Positions 4,407-60,814 are shown, numbered from the whole stretch's first letter. The stretch is 63,978 nucleotides of DNA, filler included, from an uncultured bacterium (GCA_964429075.1; 15 parts of 15 records of this genome joined end to end with filler, not necessarily neighbours in it), one strand, 5' to 3'. The notes: generated from the letters alone by a model not told the origin. Numbers and translations: made by a program.

Positions 4407-4506
4407 NNNNNNNNNNNNNNNNNNNNNNNNNNNNNNNNNNNNNNNNNNNNTTAATTAATTAANNNNNNNNNNNNNNNNNNNNNNNNNNNNNNNNNNNNNN
4501 NNNNNN
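4407..4506. other. Artificial contig-joining spacer (first of 14)
   Basis: 44N-TTAATTAATTAA-44N, stops in all six frames. Recurs at 8873, 13271, 17662, 22021, 26354, 30685, 34991, 39290, 43574, 47849, 52123, 56378 and 60622. Intervening contig lengths decrease monotonically (4366 to 4144 bp). Confidence 0.98.
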
Positions 4507-5742: not shown

Positions 5743-6210
5743 TTATATTTTCAAAAGTTCTCTCAATATAGACTTAAAATTGATGTTTTCTTTTTCTATT
5801 TGTAATGGAATTATCTGCCATCTAAGGAGTATAAAAAATTCAACATGACTTTTGATCTTTTTGCTTTCAAATCTATAGGATGGTGTAATACCTATCCTGA
5901 CAACTGGTAGAAGTTTTGAAAGAAATATTTTTCTGCTTATCTTTACTATACTTTTTTTGAATAGCTCTATGTTTTTATCTTTTATATAAAATTTTGATCT
6001 TGATTTCTGTAGTCTCCTGTTTATACATAGGCAGAGGTCTTCAGGGCTACCATTCAGGATTAAATAGGTGCTGCATTCTCTAAAAAAGGTCTCTTTTTGC
6101 ATATCGTAAGATTTATCGATTGTCTCAAGGCAGCTTAAAAGATCTGATTTTGCTTGGATCTTTTCTGTAAAGAGTAGGAATGTTAAAAGGCAGAATATTG
6201 TGGTTTTCAT
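5743..6210 (-). CDS. Secreted hypothetical protein
   Basis: Signal peptide (IQA), directly abuts recA stop; LLPVVRIG...ILLRW resembles the neighbouring protein's LP-strand-W pattern. Confidence 0.5.
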   Translation of the reverse strand: MKTTIFCLLTFLLFTEKIQAKSDLLSCLETIDKSYDMQKETFFRECSTYLILNGSPEDLCLCINRRLQKSRSKFYIKDKNIELFKKSIVKISRKIFLSKLLPVVRIGITPSYRFESKKIKSHVEFFILLRWQIIPLQIEKENINFKSILRELLKI

Positions 6211-7173
6211 CTAAGCACTCTCCATAATCATGGCCGCTATCTGAGGATCCTGGCATAGTGTTAGAATTGCCTTCTGTTTACCATGTCCCAGTTTTTTATC
6301 TGAAAAACAGTACCATGAGCCCTCTTTTGTAATGATATTTTTCTGCAGTCCAAGTTCAAGGATCTCTTCGTTCCTGTCAGGTCCTTTACCAAAATATATG
6401 GGCACAACACAGTTTCTGTATGGAGGGGATAACTTGTTTTTAACAACCGTTATCTGTATCTTCTGTCCTATCTTTTTCTCCCCATCCTTAAGGATCTCTC
6501 TCCTTTTTAATTCAATCCTCATAGAGGCATAAAATTTAAGTGCATTACCCCCTGTAGTGGTTGTATTTGGACCATAGAGAACACCTATCTTTGATCTCAG
6601 CTGGTTGATAAAAATCACAGTTGTACCTGTCTTATAGGCTGAGATGGCTATCTTTCTTATTCCCTGACTCATCAATCTTGCCTGTAGTCCGATTTTCCCC
6701 TCACCCATTGAACCTTCAAGTTCTGAACGTGGGACAAGGGCTGCTACTGAATCCACAACTATAAGTGATATAGCCTCTGATTTAACAAGTGAATGGGTGA
6801 TTTCAAGGGCCTGTTCTCCGTAGTCTGGCTGGGAGATAATAAGATCCTTCAGGTCTACTCCCAGTGTCTCTGCATAGTTAATATCAAGGGAGTGTTCTGC
6901 ATCAATAAATGCACAGATTCCACCTTTTTTCTGATGTTCAGAAATAGCAAGGAGGGCAAAGGTAGTCTTACCAGTTGATTCCTCACCAAAGATCTCTACT
7001 ATCCTGCCTTTTGGATAGCCACCTATTCCTGTGGCCATATCCAACAGAAGTGAACCGGTTGAAACTGCATCTACCTCAGGCCTTGTCTCTCTGTCCATCT
7101 TCATTATACTTCCTTCACCAAAGGTTTTTTTGATCTGCTTGATGATTGATTCAAGCCTCTTTTCCTGTTTCAT
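6211..7173 (-). CDS. recA: Recombinase RecA (divergent, short C-terminus)
   Basis: FGEGSIM, Walker A GEESTGKTT, FIDAEH, VVDSVAALVP, ARLMSQ, FINQLR, GGNALKFYAS, VVKNK; GGAGG RBS. Confidence 0.95.
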   Translation of the reverse strand: MKQEKRLESIIKQIKKTFGEGSIMKMDRETRPEVDAVSTGSLLLDMATGIGGYPKGRIVEIFGEESTGKTTFALLAISEHQKKGGICAFIDAEHSLDINYAETLGVDLKDLIISQPDYGEQALEITHSLVKSEAISLIVVDSVAALVPRSELEGSMGEGKIGLQARLMSQGIRKIAISAYKTGTTVIFINQLRSKIGVLYGPNTTTTGGNALKFYASMRIELKRREILKDGEKKIGQKIQITVVKNKLSPPYRNCVVPIYFGKGPDRNEEILELGLQKNIITKEGSWYCFSDKKLGHGKQKAILTLCQDPQIAAMIMESA

Positions 7174-7208
7174 AATACCTCCATTGATAATTGATTTTTA
7201 GCCTTTTA

Positions 7209-8738
7209 TTAGTCTCTCAGTCTTGTGGATCTATACTGAATTGCCTCAGCAATATGATGAGATTTTATGTCGTTCTGGCCTTCAAGATCGGCTATGGTTC
7301 GGGCCACTTTTATTATCCTGTGGTAACTACGGGCACTAAGACCCATCTTTTCTACAGCATTCTCAAGTAGTCTTTCACTCTCTCTATCAAGCGGACAATA
7401 CCGATATATCATTGAAGGGGTCATCTGGGCATTGCAGAATATCTTACTTTTTTTAAATCTCTCTCTTTGAGTCTTTCTTGCCTCAGTAACCCTCTTTCTT
7501 ATCTGTTTTGATGATTCGCCTCTCCTTTTATCTGAGAGTTCTTTATATCTTACAGCTGCAACTTCAACAAATATATCTATTCTATCAAGAAGGGGCCCTG
7601 ACAGTCGCGAACGGTATCTCTGGATTGCCCGTGGAGAACAGGTGCACTGATGATAGGGGTCATCAAAATAACCACAGGGGCAGGGGTTCATTGCAGCAAC
7701 GAGCATAAATTCTGAAGGATAGGTTATACTCATTGCAGCCCTTGAGATTGTAACTTTTCGATTTTCAATAGGCTGTCTGAGTACTTCAAGTACCGATTTT
7801 TTAAACTCCAGAAGTTCATCCAGAAACAGTACACCATTGTGCGCCTTGGAGACCTCGCCTGGTTTTGGATACTGTCCACCACCAATCAATGCTACATCAC
7901 TGATTGTATGATGGGGTGATCTGAATGGTCTTGTAGTTATAAGTGGTTTTGATGGATCCAGTAGCCCAGCAACAGAATAGATCTTTGTAGTTTCAACCGC
8001 CTCTTCAAATTCAAGGGGTGGCAATATTGTAACAAGCCTTTTTGCAAGCATGGTCTTACCACTTCCAGGCGGTCCAACAAGAAGAAGGTTATGACCTCCT
8101 GCTGCAGCAACCTCAAGTGCCCTTTTTGCACACTCCTGTCCTTTAACCTCATTAAAGTCTATTGGATATTCCTGCCCCTCTTTTAGGAATTTTTTCGCAT
8201 TACATCTGGTAGGCTCTACTTCAATCTTTCCGCTCAAAAAAGACATTACCTGATCAAGATTTTCAAGACCATATACGTTTACACCCTCTACTACAGAAGC
8301 CTCCTTGGCATTTTGAGCAGGTAGTATTATGCCATCTAATCCAAGGTCGCGTGCAAGTACAGCTGCAGATAGCGTACCTCTTACCCTCCTAAGACTCCCA
8401 TAGAGAGATAGCTCTCCACAGATCAAAAATCTCTGCACTCTCTCTTTTAGTCTGTCACCTTCTTGAGCTACAAGGATGGAGATTGCAATCGGTAAATCAA
8501 AGGATGAGCCCTCTTTTTTGATGTCAGCAGGTGCCATATTTACAATAATTTTTCTGTGGGGGAAAAGAAAACCGGAGTTTAAAATAGCAGACTCTACCCT
8601 GATCCTGCTCTCTTTAACTGCTGTCTCTGGAAGCCCAACAAGATTAAAATTTGTAAGACCCATCTCAAGTCCTGCCTCAACCACGACCCTAAGTGCGTAT
8701 ATACCTTCAAGCGAAAAAGAGTTTACTCTTGCAATCAT
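7209..8738 (-). CDS. comM: YifB/ComM Mg-chelatase-like AAA+ ATPase (DNA branch-migration helicase)
   Basis: VGLPETAVKES, GELSL, KGQE.AKRALEVAAAGGHN, GPPGSGKTM, FRSPHH, FLDE, MNPCPCG, SGPLLDRID, ARTIADL. Confidence 0.93.
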   Translation of the reverse strand: MIARVNSFSLEGIYALRVVVEAGLEMGLTNFNLVGLPETAVKESRIRVESAILNSGFLFPHRKIIVNMAPADIKKEGSSFDLPIAISILVAQEGDRLKERVQRFLICGELSLYGSLRRVRGTLSAAVLARDLGLDGIILPAQNAKEASVVEGVNVYGLENLDQVMSFLSGKIEVEPTRCNAKKFLKEGQEYPIDFNEVKGQECAKRALEVAAAGGHNLLLVGPPGSGKTMLAKRLVTILPPLEFEEAVETTKIYSVAGLLDPSKPLITTRPFRSPHHTISDVALIGGGQYPKPGEVSKAHNGVLFLDELLEFKKSVLEVLRQPIENRKVTISRAAMSITYPSEFMLVAAMNPCPCGYFDDPYHQCTCSPRAIQRYRSRLSGPLLDRIDIFVEVAAVRYKELSDKRRGESSKQIRKRVTEARKTQRERFKKSKIFCNAQMTPSMIYRYCPLDRESERLLENAVEKMGLSARSYHRIIKVARTIADLEGQNDIKSHHIAEAIQYRSTRLRD

Positions 8739-8788: not shown

Positions 8789-9019
8789 GCCATAATGTTC
8801 AAAATATTGAAAAATTTTGTCTTAAATATATCTAAACAATGGTAATAAAAATCCTAAAAATATCTAGCTAAANNNNNNNNNNNNNNNNNNNNNNNNNNNN
8901 NNNNNNNNNNNNNNNNTTAATTAATTAANNNNNNNNNNNNNNNNNNNNNNNNNNNNNNNNNNNNNNNNNNNNATTCTAAGGCTTGATAAAAAGACAGACC
9001 TTACACTTTTGTTGAGGTA

Positions 9020-11449
9020 TCAGAGTGGTTCAATGAGTACCTTTCTGCCCTTCTGACCCTCTGGAGGACCAACTATGCCATCCTCTTCCATCTTTTCTAT
9101 AATCTTTGCTGCCTTATTGTAACCAATACTAAACTTTCTCTGTAGCTTGGATACAGATATCATCTCAAGTCTGGATACAAACTGAACAGCCTGATCATAC
9201 AGATCATCTCCACCGCTATTACCACTCAGTGAAAAACCTGTATCTTCTTTGAGTATATCTGATCTGTATTCTGGCTTACCGAGTTTTTTCAATTCCCTTA
9301 CAACATTTTCTATCTCAACATCGGTTACATATGCTCCATGCACCCTTTTTAATTTTTCGCCAGGGAACAGAGCAAGCATATCACCCTTACCCAGGAGTCT
9401 TTCAGCACCATTTGTATCCAATATAGTCTTTGAATCTGCCCTTGTAGCTACTTTAAATGAGATCCTTGCCGGAAAATTTGCCTTGATCAGGCCTGTTACA
9501 ACATCTACAGAGGGTCTCTGTGTTGCAACAACCATATGTATACCAGCTGCCCTTGCAAGTTGTGCCAATCTAATTATCGCAGCCTCAATCTCCTTACCTG
9601 CCACCATCATCAGATCGGCAAGCTCATCTATAAATACAACAACATATGGTAGATGCTCAATATCATCTCCGTCGTTACAACCGGCTTCTTCCTTTATTCT
9701 CTCAATCATCTCTTCAAGTTTTCCGGATTTTTTAAATTTTTCCATCTTTTTGTTATAGTCGTCTATCTTTTTTGCACCGACCACCTTCATAGATTCATAA
9801 CGTCTTTCCATCTCCTTTAGAAGCCAGCGTAGTGTCTGTACTGCCTCTTTAGGTTCAGTAATAACAGGCAACAAAAGATGGGGTATACCTTCATAGAAAC
9901 TGAATTCAAGCTTCTTTGGATCTATCATAATAACCTTTACCTCATGGGGACTTGAATGCATTAATATAGAGGTGATCATAGTATTCATCCCAACACTCTT
10001 TCCAGAACCTGTAGAACCTGCTACAAGCAGATGTGGCATATCAGCAAGATTGCGAGCAACAGGTTTACCTTCAGCATCCTTTCCTATAGCAATTGTTAGA
10101 GGAGATTTAATCTTTTTAAAGACATCAGACTGAATAATGTCTTTAAGATAGACGTTTTGCCGTACCTCGTTTGGTATTTCAACCCCTACAACATCCTTGC
10201 CAGGGATAGGTGTTATTGTCCTTACACTTTCTGCCTTTAGATGCATTGCAAGTTCACTCTCAAGCTCCCTTATCTTACTCAGTCTCACTCCATCTTTGGG
10301 TTTGAATTCAAAGGTGGTAATAACTGGACCGGGACAGATTCTGACTACCTCTCCGTCAACACCATAGATCTTGAAGGTTTCTTTTAATAACCTTGCCTTG
10401 TTCCAAAGTTCTTCCTCTGTAAATAGACTCCCTGCTTCGGGATTGTCTTTCAAAATCGTAGAAGGAATGGGCGAAAAATCAGACACAGACTTTTTAGCTC
10501 TTGATCCCACTGAATCACTATTTTTTCTGGGTTCCTTTATTACTTTTGTATCATCTATTTTTGCACTATCAATGTGTCTTTTTGTATCAGTAATGGGTAT
10601 TGTCTTAGTCTTAGTGGAAGTAAAATTATCTTCTTCGTCATGAGGGACAGGTGGCATCAATGATAGGTCTTCTTGTACAAGTTCTTCAGGGAAAAGGTAT
10701 GCACCCTCTTTTATAAGGTTCTTTTTTCGTTCAGGAAATGCCTTTTTTGTTAATAGTATGATATCTTTTCCACTTTTTATAAAGGCCTTTGTAATAGGTG
10801 GCAACTTTGTAAAAAACCCTATACATCCCAGAAGGCCAATCCTTGCATAATAATAGGTTATTATGCAAGCCTTTTTGATCCCCCTGGTGGTGTAATCGAA
10901 AAATGTAACAAGATTTATTGAGAAAAACAGAGACAGCATCCAAATTAAAAAGAGGGTATATACCCATATAGTGGCTGTCCTGTACAGCTGACTTGCAATA
11001 AGGGAGTAGAAGAGGGCACCAAGCTCTCCACCAGGCAAAAATACAACACCTTTTAGTGTGGTTGAGGATGCATGAAGGAGTGAGGCTATGCTGATTACAG
11101 CAAATATAGAAACACAAGATTTAAAGAGTGAATCCTTATAGTCACCTTTGACAAGACCTTTATAGAGTATGACAAGGATAAAAAATAGTGCAGGGTAGGA
11201 GGCAAGACCAAGATTGGAAAAAAAGACATAGGATATGTAAGCCCCTATTGGTCCTACGAGATTATGGACACGGCCTTCAAGTTTCATTACTGCCATGTCA
11301 TTGGTATTAAATGAAAAAAGGCTCAGTGTTACCACAAAAACAAAACAGGCAAAGAAGAAGAACAGGGCATCTTTAAGGATACCTGTGATAAGTCTTGTTT
11401 GATTTGAATAAAATCCCTGCTGTTGATCTGTCATTGTTATACGTCTCAT
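9020..11449 (-). CDS. ftsK: DNA translocase FtsK
   Basis: 4TM N-domain, PHLLVAGSTGSGKS, MIDPK, IDELADLMM, ATQRPS, GAERLLGKGDML, gamma domain LQRKFSIGYNKAA. Confidence 0.95.
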   Translation of the reverse strand: MRRITMTDQQQGFYSNQTRLITGILKDALFFFFACFVFVVTLSLFSFNTNDMAVMKLEGRVHNLVGPIGAYISYVFFSNLGLASYPALFFILVILYKGLVKGDYKDSLFKSCVSIFAVISIASLLHASSTTLKGVVFLPGGELGALFYSLIASQLYRTATIWVYTLFLIWMLSLFFSINLVTFFDYTTRGIKKACIITYYYARIGLLGCIGFFTKLPPITKAFIKSGKDIILLTKKAFPERKKNLIKEGAYLFPEELVQEDLSLMPPVPHDEEDNFTSTKTKTIPITDTKRHIDSAKIDDTKVIKEPRKNSDSVGSRAKKSVSDFSPIPSTILKDNPEAGSLFTEEELWNKARLLKETFKIYGVDGEVVRICPGPVITTFEFKPKDGVRLSKIRELESELAMHLKAESVRTITPIPGKDVVGVEIPNEVRQNVYLKDIIQSDVFKKIKSPLTIAIGKDAEGKPVARNLADMPHLLVAGSTGSGKSVGMNTMITSILMHSSPHEVKVIMIDPKKLEFSFYEGIPHLLLPVITEPKEAVQTLRWLLKEMERRYESMKVVGAKKIDDYNKKMEKFKKSGKLEEMIERIKEEAGCNDGDDIEHLPYVVVFIDELADLMMVAGKEIEAAIIRLAQLARAAGIHMVVATQRPSVDVVTGLIKANFPARISFKVATRADSKTILDTNGAERLLGKGDMLALFPGEKLKRVHGAYVTDVEIENVVRELKKLGKPEYRSDILKEDTGFSLSGNSGGDDLYDQAVQFVSRLEMISVSKLQRKFSIGYNKAAKIIEKMEEDGIVGPPEGQKGRKVLIEPL

Positions 11450-13270: not shown

Positions 13271-13440
13271 NNNNNNNNNNNNNNNNNNNNNNNNNNNNNN
13301 NNNNNNNNNNNNNNTTAATTAATTAANNNNNNNNNNNNNNNNNNNNNNNNNNNNNNNNNNNNNNNNNNNNTATAGCAGGTTTGAGCCCATTGACAAAGGC
13401 AATAAATTCAGGATGAAGTCTCAGAGTCTGAGACATACGA

Positions 13441-17579: not shown

Positions 17580-17761
17580 ATATGCTCGTAAATAAGTTTA
17601 TTGAATAAAATAGATGCTAATTTATTCAGATTTGTATCATAATGTCAAGACAGTATATCATNNNNNNNNNNNNNNNNNNNNNNNNNNNNNNNNNNNNNNN
17701 NNNNNTTAATTAATTAANNNNNNNNNNNNNNNNNNNNNNNNNNNNNNNNNNNNNNNNNNNN

Positions 17762-18491
17762 AGTTAAGAAATACATAATCCACACCAGTAGATATCATAA
17801 AAACTTCTGCACCGATCTGGGTTGCAAGTAAAGAGGAGGTTCTGTCCTTGTCTATTACTGCCTCTATACCATACAATGTCTCGTTGTTTTTCATTGAGAC
17901 AGGTATGCCTCCTCCTCCACAGCAGATCACAACATAGCCAAGATTTGCAAGACTTTTTATGGTTTGTGCCTCGAGTATAGACAGTGGCTTTGGTGATGGA
18001 ACCACACGTCTGAATCCTCTCCCTGCATCCTCAACCATCTGCCAATTCTTTGTTTTTATAAGTGTATCAGCCTCTTTCTTTGAGTAAAATGGACCGATGG
18101 GTTTTGTGGGATTTTCGAAAGAGGGGTCTTCTGGGTCTATTAGTACCCTCGTTACAATACAGACTATATTTCTTGAGATATTTAGTTTTTTGAATGCCCT
18201 TTGAAAGGCAAGAAGCAGAGTAAAGCCAATTGATCCCTGTGTTTGAGAAACACAGTAATCGAGGCTTAATGCAGGTACCTGATGTTTAGAATATTCTACT
18301 CTCAACAGGGCATTGCCAACCTGTGGACCATTCCCGTGGGTTATAACAACAGGCAGGTCCTTTTCTTTAATTAGCTCAGAAATGGATAGGGCAGTATTTT
18401 CGGCATTTATCTCCTGCTCAACGGTAGTTCCTACCTCACCTTTCTGTATCAGGGAATTGCCACCAATTGCTATGACAACTGGAGCTACCAA
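17762..18491 (-). CDS. arcC: Carbamate kinase, 3' truncated
   Basis: AIGGNSL, THGNGPQVG, PTKPIGPFY, RRVVPSP, GGGGIPV, EAVIDKD. Confidence 0.95.
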
Positions 18492-19412
18492 TTAATCCCT
18501 CATCAATGTAACAAGTATCGCCTTTTGAGAGTGCAGTCTATTTTCTGCCTGATCAAGCACGATTGATCTGGGTGAGTCTATTACCTCATCAGTTACCTCT
18601 TCGCCACGATGCGCTGGTAGACAATGCATAAAGAAGGCATCTTTTCTGGCAAGCTCCATTAATTTTTTATTTACCTGAAAATCTTTAAATACCTCTTTTC
18701 TTTTTTCTCTTTCACTCTCTTTGCCCATGCTGGCCCAGACATCAGTATATACAGCATTTGCCTCTATTACTGCCTCTTTGGGGTCATGGAAGCTTTCGAT
18801 TTTAGAACCACTTTCTTTTGAAATCTTTTTTGCCATCTCAACTATTTCTCTGTCAGGTTCATATCCCTGTGGAGTGGCATAGGAAATATTTATACCAAGG
18901 GTTGCACAGATCAACAGTAATGAATGAAGCACGTTGTTCCCGTCACCTACATATGCAAGCCTGGCACCCTCTAAATAGCCAACATGTTCTTGAAAGGTCA
19001 TTATGTCTGCAACGGCCTGGCAGGGATGAAGTAGATCACACAGGCCGTTTATAACAGGGACACTGCTATACCTTGCAAGGTCTTCTATGATTGAGTGCTC
19101 AAAGACCCTTGCCATAATTCCATCGACCCATAGCGATAGATTCTGTGCCACATCCTTTACACTCTCTCGCTCTTTTATCTTTATGTCTGTTGGAGAGAGA
19201 TATATTGCCTTGCCTCCAAGTTGATACATCCCGATTTCAAAGGTAACCCTTGTCCTCAACGAGGGTTTTTGAAATATCATTGCAAGGGTCTTACCTTTGA
19301 GGGAATCAGAAAAACGGTGCGGATATCTTTTGATCCTTTTTGCAAGAAGCAGTATATCTTTTAGCTCCTCCTTTGAAAAGTCGGTTACGCTTCTAAAGTG
19401 TCTCAACAACAT
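18492..19412 (-). CDS. argF: Ornithine carbamoyltransferase (probably catabolic by context)
   Basis: SLRTR, HPCQ, GDGNNV, TDVWASMG, HCLP, AENRLH; GGAGGA RBS before ATG 19412. Confidence 0.93.
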   Translation of the reverse strand: MLLRHFRSVTDFSKEELKDILLLAKRIKRYPHRFSDSLKGKTLAMIFQKPSLRTRVTFEIGMYQLGGKAIYLSPTDIKIKERESVKDVAQNLSLWVDGIMARVFEHSIIEDLARYSSVPVINGLCDLLHPCQAVADIMTFQEHVGYLEGARLAYVGDGNNVLHSLLLICATLGINISYATPQGYEPDREIVEMAKKISKESGSKIESFHDPKEAVIEANAVYTDVWASMGKESEREKRKEVFKDFQVNKKLMELARKDAFFMHCLPAHRGEEVTDEVIDSPRSIVLDQAENRLHSQKAILVTLMRD

Positions 19413-19413
19413 T

Positions 19414-20736
19414 TTATCCTCCAATCCTGTCCTTTAGTATGGTTGATAATTTTTTCTTTGTCTCTTCATCCATCTCATAAAATACCCTTGTATGGGGTTT
19501 GTTTATGTTGATGAGTTTACCAAGATCAATGGGCGTTGCAATCACAACACTGTCACAATCGGTTCGATTAATTGTTGTTTCAAGGTCTCTTATCTGCTGT
19601 TCACCATAGCCCATGGCCGGAAGAAGTGTTCCAATACCAGGATATTTAATATATGTCTCTTTTATTGAGTCTACAGTGTATGGACGGGGATCAACTATCT
19701 TTTTTGCATGATACTTACGTGAAGCAATAACCCCTGCACCATACTTCATCTCACCATGAGTGAGGGTTGGACCATCCTCTACGACAAGCACTCTTTTGTT
19801 TTCTATCAATGATGGATCTGTAACTGTTATAGGAGATGAGGCCTCGAGTATTGTTGCGTTTTTGTTGTATTTTCTTACTTCATCTTTTACCTTTGCAATA
19901 TTTTCTTCACTTGCTGTATCAACCTTATTAATAATTATAATATCTGCCATAAGAAGGTTAACAAATCCTGGATAGTAGGTTGTTTCATGACCCGGTCTGT
20001 GGGGGTCAACAACAGTTATATATATATCCGGCACATAGAATGAGGTATCGTTATTCCCTCCATCCCATACAATAACGTCTGCTTCTGATTCTGCCTCATT
20101 AAGAATTGCACCATAATCTACTCCTGCATAGACTATAGTATTATTTCTAATGTGTGGTTCATACTCTTCTCTCTCTTCGATAGTGCAGTTGTACTTATCG
20201 AAGTCAGAAAAATCAGCAAATCTTTGGACCTTTTGGGCAACAAGGTCTCCATACGGCATTGGATGTCTAACTGCTACCACTTTTTGACCAAGATCTGATA
20301 GTATAGAGCATATTGCACGAGTTGTCTGACTCTTCCCACAGCCTGTTCTTACTGCACAGACTGCCACGACAGGTTTTCTGGATTTTAACATTGTGGAACT
20401 TGGAGATACAAGCTGAAAATCTGCACCTGCAGAAAGGGCTATTGATGCCCTTTTCATAACATAATCGTGTGACACATCACTGTAGGAAAATACAACAAGA
20501 TCAACATCTTTTTCTCTTATAATTTCTGCGAGATCATCCTCGGGTAGAATAGGTATTCCATCGGGATAGAGCTCACCAGCAAGCTGTGCAGGATATTTTC
20601 GATTGTCAATGTTGGGTATCTGTGTGGCAGTAAAGCATACCACATTGTACTTTGGGTTATCCCTGTAAAGGGTGTTGAAATTATGAAAATCCCTGCCAGC
20701 TGCACCAAGGATAACTACATTTGTTCTCTTTGCCAT
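19414..20736 (-). CDS. arcE: P-loop NTPase, likely arginine synthetase (ArcE family; often auto-annotated as GTPase or cDPG synthase)
   Basis: ILGAAGRDFHNFN, FTATQIP, RTGCGKSQT, IEEREEYEPH, WDGGNND, VVEDGPTLTHG, LPAMGY; sits directly upstream of OTC and carbamate kinase. Family match from memory. Confidence 0.75.
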   Translation of the reverse strand: MAKRTNVVILGAAGRDFHNFNTLYRDNPKYNVVCFTATQIPNIDNRKYPAQLAGELYPDGIPILPEDDLAEIIREKDVDLVVFSYSDVSHDYVMKRASIALSAGADFQLVSPSSTMLKSRKPVVAVCAVRTGCGKSQTTRAICSILSDLGQKVVAVRHPMPYGDLVAQKVQRFADFSDFDKYNCTIEEREEYEPHIRNNTIVYAGVDYGAILNEAESEADVIVWDGGNNDTSFYVPDIYITVVDPHRPGHETTYYPGFVNLLMADIIIINKVDTASEENIAKVKDEVRKYNKNATILEASSPITVTDPSLIENKRVLVVEDGPTLTHGEMKYGAGVIASRKYHAKKIVDPRPYTVDSIKETYIKYPGIGTLLPAMGYGEQQIRDLETTINRTDCDSVVIATPIDLGKLININKPHTRVFYEMDEETKKKLSTILKDRIGG

Positions 20737-20757
20737 ATAATCCTCCACTTATAGGAT

Positions 20758-22020
20758 TTACTGTTTTAAAGCCTCTTCGATTATATCCACCGCTTTATCG
20801 AGATCCTCTTTTTCTACGATAAGGGGTGGGATAAAACGGATATTGTTGCCATAAAGTCCACAGGAAATGAGTATTAATCCCTTTTCAAGGGCGTAATTTT
20901 GTATCTTTTTAAACAGCTCTGGTGCAGGATTTCCATCAGCATCCACAAGTTCTATTCCTATCATATATCCCAAACCCCGTACATCTCCGATTGAGTCGAT
21001 CCTTTCCTGCAGGTCTTTTAGTCTTTTTATAACATATTCTTAGAGCATGCTCGCCTTTTCAAGCAGTCCTTCCTCTTTTATTACCGATATTGTTGCAAGT
21101 GAGGCGGCGCAAGATACAGGATTACCACCAAAGGTTGTCCCATGTGCACCTGTTGGCCAGCGATCCATAAGCTCTTTACTCGCACACACAGCACTCAAAG
21201 GGAATCCAGATGCAATACCTTTGGCTATAGACATAATATCTGGGGTTACCCCAAAGTGTTCTGATGCAAACCATTTTGCAGTTCTTCCAAAACCTGTCTG
21301 TACCTCATCGAAGATAAGCATACAATTTGTACGATCCGCGAGTTCCCGCAGGTATTTCATAAATTCTGCAGGTGGAACTACATAACCGCCCTCACCCTGC
21401 ACAGGTTCGATTACTATACACGAAAGATCATCAGGATCGAGTTCAGTTTTCAACATACCCTCGATAAAATCAATACATTCAAAGTTACAGCTGTCTTTTT
21501 TCTGACCAAAGGGGCAACGGTAGCAGTATGGAAAAGGAGCCCTATAAACATCCGGCAAGAGGGGAGAGTATCCGTGACGGTATTTAACGTTGGAGGATGT
21601 GATGCTTACGGTACCCATTGTCCTTCCATGAAAGGCGCCTCTAAATGCGAGGATTGCATTTTTGCCTGTAACATATTTAGCAAGTTTGATGCTCCCTTCC
21701 ACCGCCTCAGCACCACCGTTGGAAAAGAAAAATGAATCAATCACACCCGGAGTAATCTCAGAGAGTTTCTCTGCAAGATCCACGATAGTGTCATAGAGGA
21801 ATACACAACCAGAATGGATCAGCTTTTCCAGTTGCAATTTAGCGACCTCCACAACCTTTGGATGGTTATGACCTATATTTGTGGTTGCTGTACCACACGA
21901 AAAGTCGAGATATTTTTTACCATCACTGGTATATACATATTTACCTGCTGCTTTTACTACATGTAGATTGGTGTCCCAACCAAGGGCGTTGGATATAAAT
22001 TTTTCTTTTCTCTTCAGTAT
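20758..22020 (-). pseudogene. Class III PLP aminotransferase (GabT/ornithine aminotransferase-like) with in-frame TAA at 21040-21042; 5' truncated
   Basis: One frame from contig edge: YLDFSCG..NIGHNHP, FHGRT, EPVQGEGG, DEVQTGFGRT, IAKG, TFGGNP, then KASML*EYVIKRL..GDVRGLGYMIGIE..IRFIPPL in the same frame. Confidence 0.8.
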
Positions 22021-22274
22021 NNNNNNNNNNNNNNNNNNNNNNNNNNNNNNNNNNNNNNNNNNNNTTAATTAATTAANNNNNNNNNNNNNNNNNNNNNNNN
22101 NNNNNNNNNNNNNNNNNNNNTCACTGATTACATCTTGATAAAAAGTTAGATTAAACTTTGTAACATAATAATGTGTTGCCAAAATGATTTGTGTTCATAT
22201 GCACTACTTATAACAGTGGTTGAAATGTTAGTGCAGTTGTGATAAATTAAATGAAATTTTAGTTAGGAGAATTA

Positions 22275-23476
22275 ATGAAAAACAAGATATTGGTTGCCCT
22301 TTTGATATCACTTCAGCTGGTATATATGCCANNNNNNNNNNATATAGCTCTGTTTTTCCGGCAGAAAAAAAGAATACAAGTTCAGAAACACAGGATAAAA
22401 CTAAACAGGATGCCCTAAAAAATGTCAAAGATAACAAAAATACTGATCAAAAAGACAATAAAAATTCAACTGATACATCAAAAAAAGAACATACAAATTT
22501 AAAGAACAAAAGTGTAAACAGACCGAGACTTGCGCTTATGGGTATTTCCTACCAGAAGGTTGATCCAAAGCTGGTAGAGGCCCTTGAGGAAGCCTCAGCA
22601 AATGCAATGGCCGAGTCAAACCTCTATGAGATCATCACTACATCAGATGTAAAGACGATGCTACAATTAAAGCAACGCCAGCAGATGATGGGATGCGATT
22701 CCGGTAGCTGCTTGCAGGATCTTGGTGATATACTGGGAGTACAATTTCTGGCAAAAGGAATGATCACAGGTCTTGGTAAAAAGAGATACAATGTCTCTTT
22801 TAAACTTATCGATATTACCAAGGGTGTGGTCAAAAATAGATTGGATAGAATAGTAGAAGGAGGTAGGGAGGCACTTTTGTTGGTGGTGAAAGATCTCTCC
22901 TATATGCTTCTTACTGGGAAAAAGAGGGTGCACACCGGGATTTTGCTACTAAAAGTTAATCAGAAAGGTGCTGCTGTTATTGTGGATGGTAAAAAGATCG
23001 GGGCCTATCCTCTAAAAAAGGACCTGATCCTCGAGAAGGGTGAGCATACGGTTGTTGTAGAAAAAGATGGTTTCATAACCTGGAAGGGTAATGTGACCAT
23101 AGAGCCCGGCCAGCAATCAACTGTTGAGGCATCACTTATGCCAAAATCAGAGATTAAGATAAATGTCGAAAAGAGTAAATTGGATCGTTGGGCCTGGGTA
23201 GTACTTGGCCTTGGCCTTGCTGTAGGTGGTGGTGGTACCTATTTTGGTTCAAAGGCAGACAAAAATTATAAACAGTATAACGATGCAAACTCGAGAGACG
23301 ATGCCCTTCGCTATAAAGACCAGACCCAGAAAAATGCAAAAGTTGCAAATATTATGCTGCTAAGTGCAGCTTTAAGTGGTGTAATTTCTGCTGTCCTGTT
23401 TACAACAGATGCTGTATTTGAAAAGGCAAAAGAGCAGCCAAGAGAGTCTAATTCTGTTATACCTAACAGCTATTGA
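22275..23476 (+). CDS. Secreted PEGA-domain protein (10-N gap near 5' end)
   Basis: AGGAGA RBS and signal peptide at 22275, charged linker, GC...CL..LG..LG domain, PEGA (VIVDGKKIG.YPL..GEHTVVVEKDGF), C-terminal hydrophobic helices. Confidence 0.7.
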
Positions 23477-26353: not shown

Positions 26354-26496
26354 NNNNNNNNNNNNNNNNNNNNNNNNNNNNNNNNNNNNNNNNNNNNTTA
26401 ATTAATTAANNNNNNNNNNNNNNNNNNNNNNNNNNNNNNNNNNNNNNNNNNNNGTCTTATCTACAATTTTTCATAATCTGTTAATCTGGGGAAAGA

Positions 26497-60621: not shown

Positions 60622-60814
60622 NNNNNNNNNNNNNNNNNNNNNNNNNNNNNNNNNNNNNNNNNNNNTTAATTAATTAANNNNNNNNNNNNNNNNNNNNNNN
60701 NNNNNNNNNNNNNNNNNNNNNCTGTTGACATTAATAGATATTCTCCTCTTATATATTTAAGATAAACGAGACGTTTGTCGTAACATTTTATTAATTTTTT
60801 AATATTGTTTTCTT

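Follow-up and report, generated by a model that had tools for sequence, protein, structure and literature searches.

Introduction

Can a bacterium in whose genome no arginine deiminase was found draw ATP from arginine, and with which enzymes would it do so? This question is raised by a short locus in the draft genome of an uncultured bacterium, at positions 17762-22020 of the window, which is the whole stretch of 63,978 nucleotides that was analysed. The locus contains four closely packed genes, all on the minus strand, encoding a class-III aminotransferase, a P-loop protein, an ornithine transcarbamylase (OTC), and a carbamate kinase (CK). A preliminary description of this DNA had read the four genes as a tight operon for energy-conserving arginine catabolism; all of its open reading frames (ORFs) and the strings that it quoted from the P-loop protein, GAAGRDFHNFN and RTGCGKS, are present as described. 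The locus is, by its sequence, a bacterial arcE-arcB-arcC arginine synthetase operon, most likely catabolic, to which an aminotransferase of unproven role and uncertain integrity is attached.

Arginine synthetase (ArcE) is known from Thermococcus kodakarensis, in which the protein TK2200 converts arginine, ADP and Pi to citrulline, NH3 and ATP, as described by Michimori, Yokooji and Atomi in 2024 (PMC11032458). According to that paper, TK2200 acts specifically on L-arginine with a preference for ADP; working with OTC and CK, it gives two ATP per arginine, and its pathway also supplies ornithine for proline. The paper also describes arcE homologs as widespread in bacteria, sometimes near arcB or arcC, and the legend of its SI Fig. 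S2B lists such clusters.

In the pathway proposed for the window, ArcE would convert L-arginine, ADP and Pi to citrulline, NH3 and ATP, and OTC would phosphorolyse the citrulline to ornithine and carbamoyl phosphate. CK would then transfer the phosphate to ADP, giving ATP and carbamate, which would decompose to CO2 and NH3, so that the net yield would be two substrate-level ATP per arginine. The aminotransferase, if intact, would most likely use ornithine as its substrate, transaminating it at the delta-amino group and so producing glutamate 5-semialdehyde (1-pyrroline-5-carboxylate, P5C), and P5C could pass to 2-oxoglutarate via P5C dehydrogenase and glutamate dehydrogenase homologs or to proline via ProC. 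The direction of flux and the substrate of the aminotransferase are what we infer; a catabolic arginine synthetase pathway encoded on this contig, with an upstream aminotransferase that, if intact, most likely acts on ornithine, is in our view probable.

Identity of the P-Loop Protein

The arcE homolog occupies 19414..20736 on the minus strand (ORF 19417-20736) and encodes a protein of 440 residues from its ATG, followed by TAA, the same length as in the database's own prediction (P0001). In a pairwise alignment it is 65% identical (285/436), with 79% positives and 0 gaps, to protein P0123 of Pyrococcus furiosus DSM 3638, and the two proteins are identical at the N-terminal GAAGRDFHNFN and at the P-loop AVRTGCGKSQT. 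P0123, which has the source name 'GTPase [Pyrococcus furiosus DSM 3638]', was found by a second search that started from a homolog of Pyrococcus kukulkanii and returned a tight Thermococcales group, 85-99% identical to that query. The P-loop protein is also 63-65% identical to five further proteins from Thermococcales or Aciduliprofundum. Relatives of the P-loop protein number thousands in a search of 5.8 billion proteins; the closest listed is 69% identical and the P. kukulkanii protein 65%. An alignment of 234 family members has 144 near-invariant columns, in which the 233 homologs are at least 98% conserved; the P-loop protein agrees with them in 141 of these and departs in three (G199N, A339S, and L422M).

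The link to the characterised TK2200 runs via named Thermococcales orthologs, chiefly P0123 of P. furiosus. SI Table S1 of the 2024 paper gives P. furiosus DSM 3638 no arcA, one arcC, and one arcE (PMC11032458), and arcE is described as conserved throughout the Thermococcales (PMC13260591). By its sequence, the P-loop protein is an ArcE-family arginine synthetase and not a cyclic 2,3-diphosphoglycerate (cDPG) synthase, and its arginine synthetase activity is predicted from the 65% identity to Thermococcales homologs of TK2200. The proposal that an ArcE-type arginine synthetase here replaces arginine deiminase holds at this level, with the P0123 identity and the conserved columns behind it.

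Many database names would instead make this protein a cDPG synthetase, and NCBI and UniRef do call several of its close homologs 'cyclic 2,3-diphosphoglycerate synthase'. The sole solved structure found by sequence is also a cDPG synthetase (PDB 9sxb), which belongs to a distantly related P-loop fold family and has a similar length (436 aa). The alignment to 9sxb is partial and scores 23.8 bits (E 1.8e-4), against 605-657 bits to the Thermococcales arcE homologs; the score is carried by one 108-residue stretch, residues 220-327, and the similarity falls short of a full-length match. The genomic context differs as well, the P-loop gene being coupled here to those for OTC and CK, and cDPG synthases appear as a distant outgroup in the 2024 paper (PMC11032458). 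A grouping with the cDPG synthases, the outcome that the preliminary description had held to be fatal to its proposal, was not seen, and the chance that the P-loop protein is a cDPG synthetase is negligible.

The names given to this family deserve attention in their own right. A search of NCBIfam with the P-loop protein returned no family, and Pfam gave a weak cobW match. The homologs listed are named GTPase, predicted GTPase, cyclic 2,3-diphosphoglycerate synthase, or hypothetical protein, and 'arginine synthetase' is the source name of none of them, which bears out the earlier remark that automated pipelines miss ArcE. When the metabolism of uncultured anaerobes is reconstructed, labels such as 'GTPase' and 'cDPG synthase' conceal a step that yields ATP.

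Ornithine Transcarbamylase, Carbamate Kinase, and Their Coupling to arcE

The OTC gene, of the arcB/argF type, lies at 18492..19412 on the minus strand (ORF 18495-19412) and encodes 306 residues followed by TAA. The protein scores above the curated cut-offs of two OTC models (432.3 vs 306 bits for NF001986 and 417.2 vs 280.85 for TIGR00658) and below that of the putrescine carbamoyltransferase model TIGR04384 (331.7 vs 500). A transcarbamylase that prefers putrescine had been named beforehand as the sign of a different pathway; by these scores the protein is assigned to the OTC family. The operon OTC is the only OTC found in the genome; the second match is similar to aspartate transcarbamylase (ATCase).

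The CK gene (arcC) is found at 17762..18491 on the minus strand, where 243 codons (ORF 17763-18491) precede the contig end that cuts off its 3' portion. All four NCBIfam matches of its product are carbamate kinase models. The scores, 272 bits vs 358.25 for TIGR00746 and 263.9 vs 266 for NF009007, are below the cut-offs; the gene runs into the contig end, and the TIGR00746 match spans positions 3-238 of the 309 in the profile.

The genes are joined with hardly a nucleotide to spare. The OTC ATG comes just one nucleotide after the stop of arcE, a GGAGGA sequence lies within the end of arcE, and the OTC stop is followed at 0 nt by the TTG start of CK; arcE, OTC, and CK are, on this sequence evidence, translationally coupled. 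The aminotransferase gene ends 21 nt before the arcE ATG, and this gap contains a GGAGGA placed 4 nt 5' of the ATG.

Gene Content of the Genome and Direction of Flux

The preliminary description had noted that no arginine deiminase is encoded on the contig. This is true, but it carries no weight alone, because 17762-22020 is exactly one whole contig (G000:C157) of only 4,259 bp. The search covered the whole assembly (G000), which comprises 282 contigs and 1.54 Mb, with a completeness of 70.8% and a contamination of 0.08%. Curated models were used, and the same searches match most of 14 control genomes. In this 70.8%-complete genome there was no match over cut-off for arcA (TIGR01078) or the arginine deiminase family PF02274, for argG or argH, for argB, argC or argJ, for proA or proB, or for ornithine cyclodeaminase, and no match to an agmatine deiminase family gene.

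Other genes of amino-acid metabolism were found in the same genome. A full-length carB scores 1459 bits against a cut-off of 1027, and proC is present. A P5C dehydrogenase (TIGR01236, 803.6 vs 613.6 bits) is followed directly by hutH (702 bits) at L197:98-3250 on a 3.5-kb contig (G000:C200), and two glutamate dehydrogenase homologs score below the equivalog cut-offs. A lysine fermentation module (kamD/kamE/kal), L196:562-3300 (G000:C3), encodes both subunits of lysine 5,6-aminomutase, alpha and beta, together with 3-aminobutyryl-CoA ammonia-lyase, all of them over the NCBIfam cut-offs. The kamD/kamE/kal genes, hutH, the P5C dehydrogenase, and the glutamate dehydrogenase homologs support the earlier suggestion of an amino-acid- or peptide-fermenting metabolism.

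Because five arginine-biosynthesis markers were not found while OTC is coupled to CK, the organism is most simply read as one without arginine synthesis, whose operon breaks arginine down. For the metagenome-assembled genome (MAG) as a whole, this predicts an organism that ferments amino acids, depends on arginine from outside, and gains two ATP from it.

The Upstream Aminotransferase and Its In-Frame TAA

The gene directly upstream of arcE, at 20758..22020 on the minus strand (ORF 20761-22020, with its own stop TAA at 20758-20760), encodes a class-III GabT-like aminotransferase (Pfam Aminotran_3). The contig end truncates this gene on the 5' side, where about 3-4 codons are missing as judged by N-terminal alignment to homologs. 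An in-frame TAA on the same strand at 21040..21042 divides the gene into 326 and 93 codons, and the Pfam match comes in two pieces of 346.5 and 64.8 bits, which cover profile positions 11-316 and 321-403. When the gene is read through with X at the TAA, the product passes NF005993 (PRK08117) with 603.4 vs 574 bits, a model whose name is generic and without a substrate. Three class-III aminotransferases are encoded in the genome; the one in the operon is the only one similar to GabT, ArgD, or ornithine aminotransferase, the others being BioA and HemL.

Among solved structures, the aminotransferase is closest to GabT enzymes (3r4t, 251 bits) and to 7vno (244.6 bits), which we take to be PH1423, the ornithine delta-aminotransferase of Pyrococcus horikoshii. 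A table in PMC9986279 includes PH1423 and TK2101 as ornithine aminotransferases of Class II, the class of the aminotransferase itself, and shows PH1423 taking 4-aminobutyrate (GABA) weakly as well; according to a title cited in that paper, growth in the absence of proline requires TK2101. Transamination of ornithine at the delta position would fit the locus and its genome, because the aminotransferase gene lies 21 nt upstream of arcE, proC was found without proA or proB, and a P5C dehydrogenase is encoded. That the enzyme acts on ornithine is, from these sequence relations, nearly an even chance.

The in-frame TAA falls at a column occupied by G in 37, S in 20, H in 2, and N in 1 of 60 homologs, and the 93 codons past the TAA stay in frame and are conserved, including the motif GDVRGLG. 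Recoding of TAA was considered and rejected, as TAA ends the aminotransferase, arcE, and OTC where their homologs end; genome-wide, long ORFs are closed by all three stops (TAA 280, TGA 234, TAG 143). Translation in this organism does stop at TAA, which leaves three possible explanations for the in-frame TAA: a nonsense mutation of recent date, a minority allele, or a fault in the assembly.

One public DNA run (X1), labelled as a hot springs metagenome, contains the contig with a word share of 0.86, and no public RNA run containing it is listed. Independent Logan contigs of run X1 cover the contig at word depths of about 6-27 and leave 21010-21190 open, the TAA included. Over 21191-22020, the Logan piece and the MAG contig disagree at 7 letters, e.g., at 21241, 21246, and 21571, which suggests strain heterogeneity at the locus.

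arcE Neighbourhoods in Other Genomes

Relatives of the P-loop protein are encoded by at least 598 stretches in species-representative genomes, and the best 80 loci were examined. CK and/or OTC lie within 3 kb of arcE in 35 of them (CK only in 19, both in 10, OTC only in 6); of the 45 loci without either gene, 20 have a short flank. The window order arcE-OTC-CK recurs in L013, L014, L017, and L021. Among 30 unrelated bacterial genomes, ten have an arcE homolog, and CK and/or OTC are adjacent to it in 9 of the 9 loci returned. The locus is less novel than the preliminary description implied; bacterial arcE-arcB-arcC clusters are already described in PMC11032458.

Enzymes that act on ornithine are found near arcE elsewhere. 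In one Ignavibacteria MAG (L091, 4838-7311), an ornithine aminotransferase (TIGR01885, 523 vs 378.4 bits) is encoded directly upstream of arcE, and in another (L053, 4438-12010), a protein matching the same model with 611 vs 378.4 bits is encoded 3.5 kb downstream of arcE-CK. In L077, an ornithine cyclodeaminase family gene is upstream of arcE. Two further candidates were set aside: the aminotransferase match near arcE in L015 is HemL, and an ORF near arcE in L022 matches no family at E ≤ 1e-80. Relatives of the window aminotransferase have OTC directly 3' in 5 of 80 metagenome loci, an arrangement that looks like argD-argF.

Other recurrent neighbours of arcE were observed in the same survey. 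An aldehyde dehydrogenase of 497-498 residues is encoded directly upstream of arcE in four Zixibacteria or Ignavibacteria MAGs (L052:4260-5753, L053:4438-5928, L074:4322-5815, and L080:1812-3305); these proteins are not called P5C dehydrogenases, as they pass no NCBIfam cut-off and their best match is GucD-like (549-570 vs 770). In many Anaerolineae/Chloroflexota MAGs, arcE occurs without OTC or CK, directly downstream of nusB in 11 loci (L031, L032, L042, L056, L062, L064, L065, L071, L072, L079, and L083) or of tatC in six (L016, L023, L041, L069, L075, and L088). A Symbiobacterium MAG (L048) has two arcE copies, at 6001-7299 and 9220-10506, about 1.9 kb apart, whose products are 63% and 61% identical to the window protein.

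Alternative Readings of the Operon

The same genes could in principle run the other way. ArcE would then be biosynthetic and form arginine from citrulline, ATP, and NH3, replacing ArgG and ArgH, and OTC would be anabolic, fed by carbamoyl phosphate synthetase (CPS). The 2024 paper raises this possibility for bacteria without argG and argH but with CPS and ornithine synthesis (PMC11032458), and the present genome, in which argG, argH, and a second OTC were not found, has carB. However, argB, argC, and argJ were not found either, so that no ornithine source is evident; moreover, a CK translationally coupled to OTC fits breakdown, and the genome contains several amino-acid catabolic modules. A biosynthetic ArcE is, on this balance, improbable. 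Slightly less probable still is a pathway whose main product is not ATP but carbamoyl phosphate destined for pyrimidines, a role shown in T. kodakarensis in 2026, where CPS is absent (PMC13260591). The ATCase-like gene of the window genome would suit such a role, but the full-length carB, well above its cut-off, means that carbamoyl phosphate need not come from arginine, and the operon includes CK, which destroys it.

Breakdown of arginine by the products of all four genes, the reading preferred here, is itself opposed by several points. The activity of ArcE is in this case a prediction from sequence. A completeness of 70.8% makes each single absence weak, and arg genes are often clustered, which makes their absences less independent. 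The contig ends hide any transporter or regulator. As for the fourth gene, its read-through product scores below the GABA aminotransferase model TIGR00700 (433 vs 506.65) and below ArgD (364.8 vs 410.05), and no ornithine aminotransferase model, TIGR01885 included, is among the NCBIfam families listed for it at E ≤ 1e-90. The in-frame TAA would remove its C-terminal 93 residues. These last points lead to the strongest competitor, in which arcE, OTC, and CK alone form the functional unit and the aminotransferase is of a GABA or other omega-amino-acid type or is inactivated by the TAA at 21040-21042. The best solved relative, 3r4t, is a GabT; the closest homologs listed have the source names '4-aminobutyrate aminotransferase' or 'aspartate aminotransferase family protein'; and two succinate-semialdehyde-dehydrogenase-like genes elsewhere in the genome would fit a GABA aminotransferase. 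Neither is the link to arcE conserved: an aminotransferase of the window type stands directly upstream of arcE in 0 of the 80 best species-representative loci, and the relatives of the aminotransferase have arcE nearby in one of 80 metagenome loci (L146). On the other side, a 21-nt spacer with a Shine-Dalgarno sequence is all that lies between the aminotransferase and arcE, and the conservation of the codons past the TAA means that any inactivation is very recent or else that a fault in the assembly, at a depth of about 6-8x, produced the TAA. Other bacteria have true ornithine aminotransferases beside arcE, and a GabT-like sequence is compatible with ornithine as substrate, as the weak activity of PH1423 on GABA in the table of PMC9986279 indicates. 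A three-gene unit is a serious possibility, a little less probable than the action of the enzyme on ornithine; it is compatible with the core of the catabolic reading and disputes the fourth gene only.

The catabolic four-gene reading can be extended to a fuller proposal. One operon would turn imported arginine into two ATP and glutamate semialdehyde, with a GabT-family (PRK08117-type) enzyme as the ornithine delta-aminotransferase, feeding both energy metabolism, via P5C dehydrogenase and glutamate dehydrogenase, and a ProC-dependent proline supply in a hot-spring lineage seemingly without arginine and proline synthesis of its own. Taken as a whole, this proposal is put forward tentatively, is less likely than not, and is a little less probable than the three-gene alternative. 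If it is true, the aminotransferase would be a bacterial counterpart of the TK2101/PH1423 type, physically joined to an arcE-arcB-arcC module.

The Contig and Its Host

The window is composed of 15 contigs of a draft assembly, in pieces of about 4.3 kb each, joined by fourteen 100-nt spacers. The contig studied here is bounded by the artificial spacers 17662..17761 (a run of N, TTAATTAATTAA, and a second run of N) and 22021..22120, which join it to the neighbouring contigs of the assembly. Further artificial spacers are found at 4407-4506, 8873-8972, 13271-13370, and 26354-26453, with eight more up to 60622-60721. Because the pieces are separate contigs, any gene neighbourhood across a spacer is artificial, and the genes that flank 17762-22020 in the window are not its neighbours. 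Inside the next contig, a run of 10 N at window positions 22331-22340 interrupts a small ORF.

The host had been described beforehand as myxobacteria-like, for which nothing speaks: the genome has a GC content of 0.39, and the collection searched contains no genome of the same phylum. A phylum-level search among species genomes returns G000 alone, and all 30 'relatives' of G000 are related at the domain level only, so that a whole phylum-level lineage appears to be represented in that collection by this genome only. Placement by named best matches was also tried and is not used, since it gives inconsistent results (Bacteroidota/Calditrichota for ArcE and Deltaproteobacteria/Nitrospirae for the aminotransferase).

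Significance and Comparison with Known Systems

The locus adds a further bacterial, operon-encoded example of the arginine synthetase pathway and leaves the picture drawn by Michimori et al. (2024) unchanged. Its attached aminotransferase may represent a second type of bacterial ornithine aminotransferase, one that resembles GabT. With the RocD-type (TIGR01885) ornithine aminotransferases it has in common that both are class-III, pyridoxal phosphate-dependent aminotransferases, and genes of the RocD type occur beside or near arcE in L091 and L053. Unlike them, the window aminotransferase passes the generic NF005993 only and carries an in-frame TAA. The archaeal TK2101/PH1423 type shares with it the GabT-like subgroup.

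The T. kodakarensis pathway, consisting of TK2200, ArcB, and ArcC, is made up of the same three enzyme families as the window operon, and no arginine deiminase was found in the window genome. In both, ornithine is a likely precursor of P5C and proline, proC being present here and proA and proB not found. The two systems differ in that the host is bacterial, that the three genes stand in one coupled operon, and that a GabT-like gene lies upstream. Moreover, the window genome has carB for CPS, so that a supply of carbamoyl phosphate from arginine is not needed, and its ArcE is a sequence assignment. The bacterial arcE-arcB-arcC clusters are closer in organisation, with arcE next to CK and/or OTC and, in some, the same gene order; none of the 80 loci examined has the window aminotransferase directly upstream, and the window host is alone in its phylum in the collection searched. 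Like the arginine deiminase pathway (arcA-arcB-arcC), the window operon has an OTC step and a CK step, follows a catabolic logic, and is organised as an operon, but its first step would be carried out by a P-loop enzyme that conserves ATP, giving two ATP per arginine instead of one.

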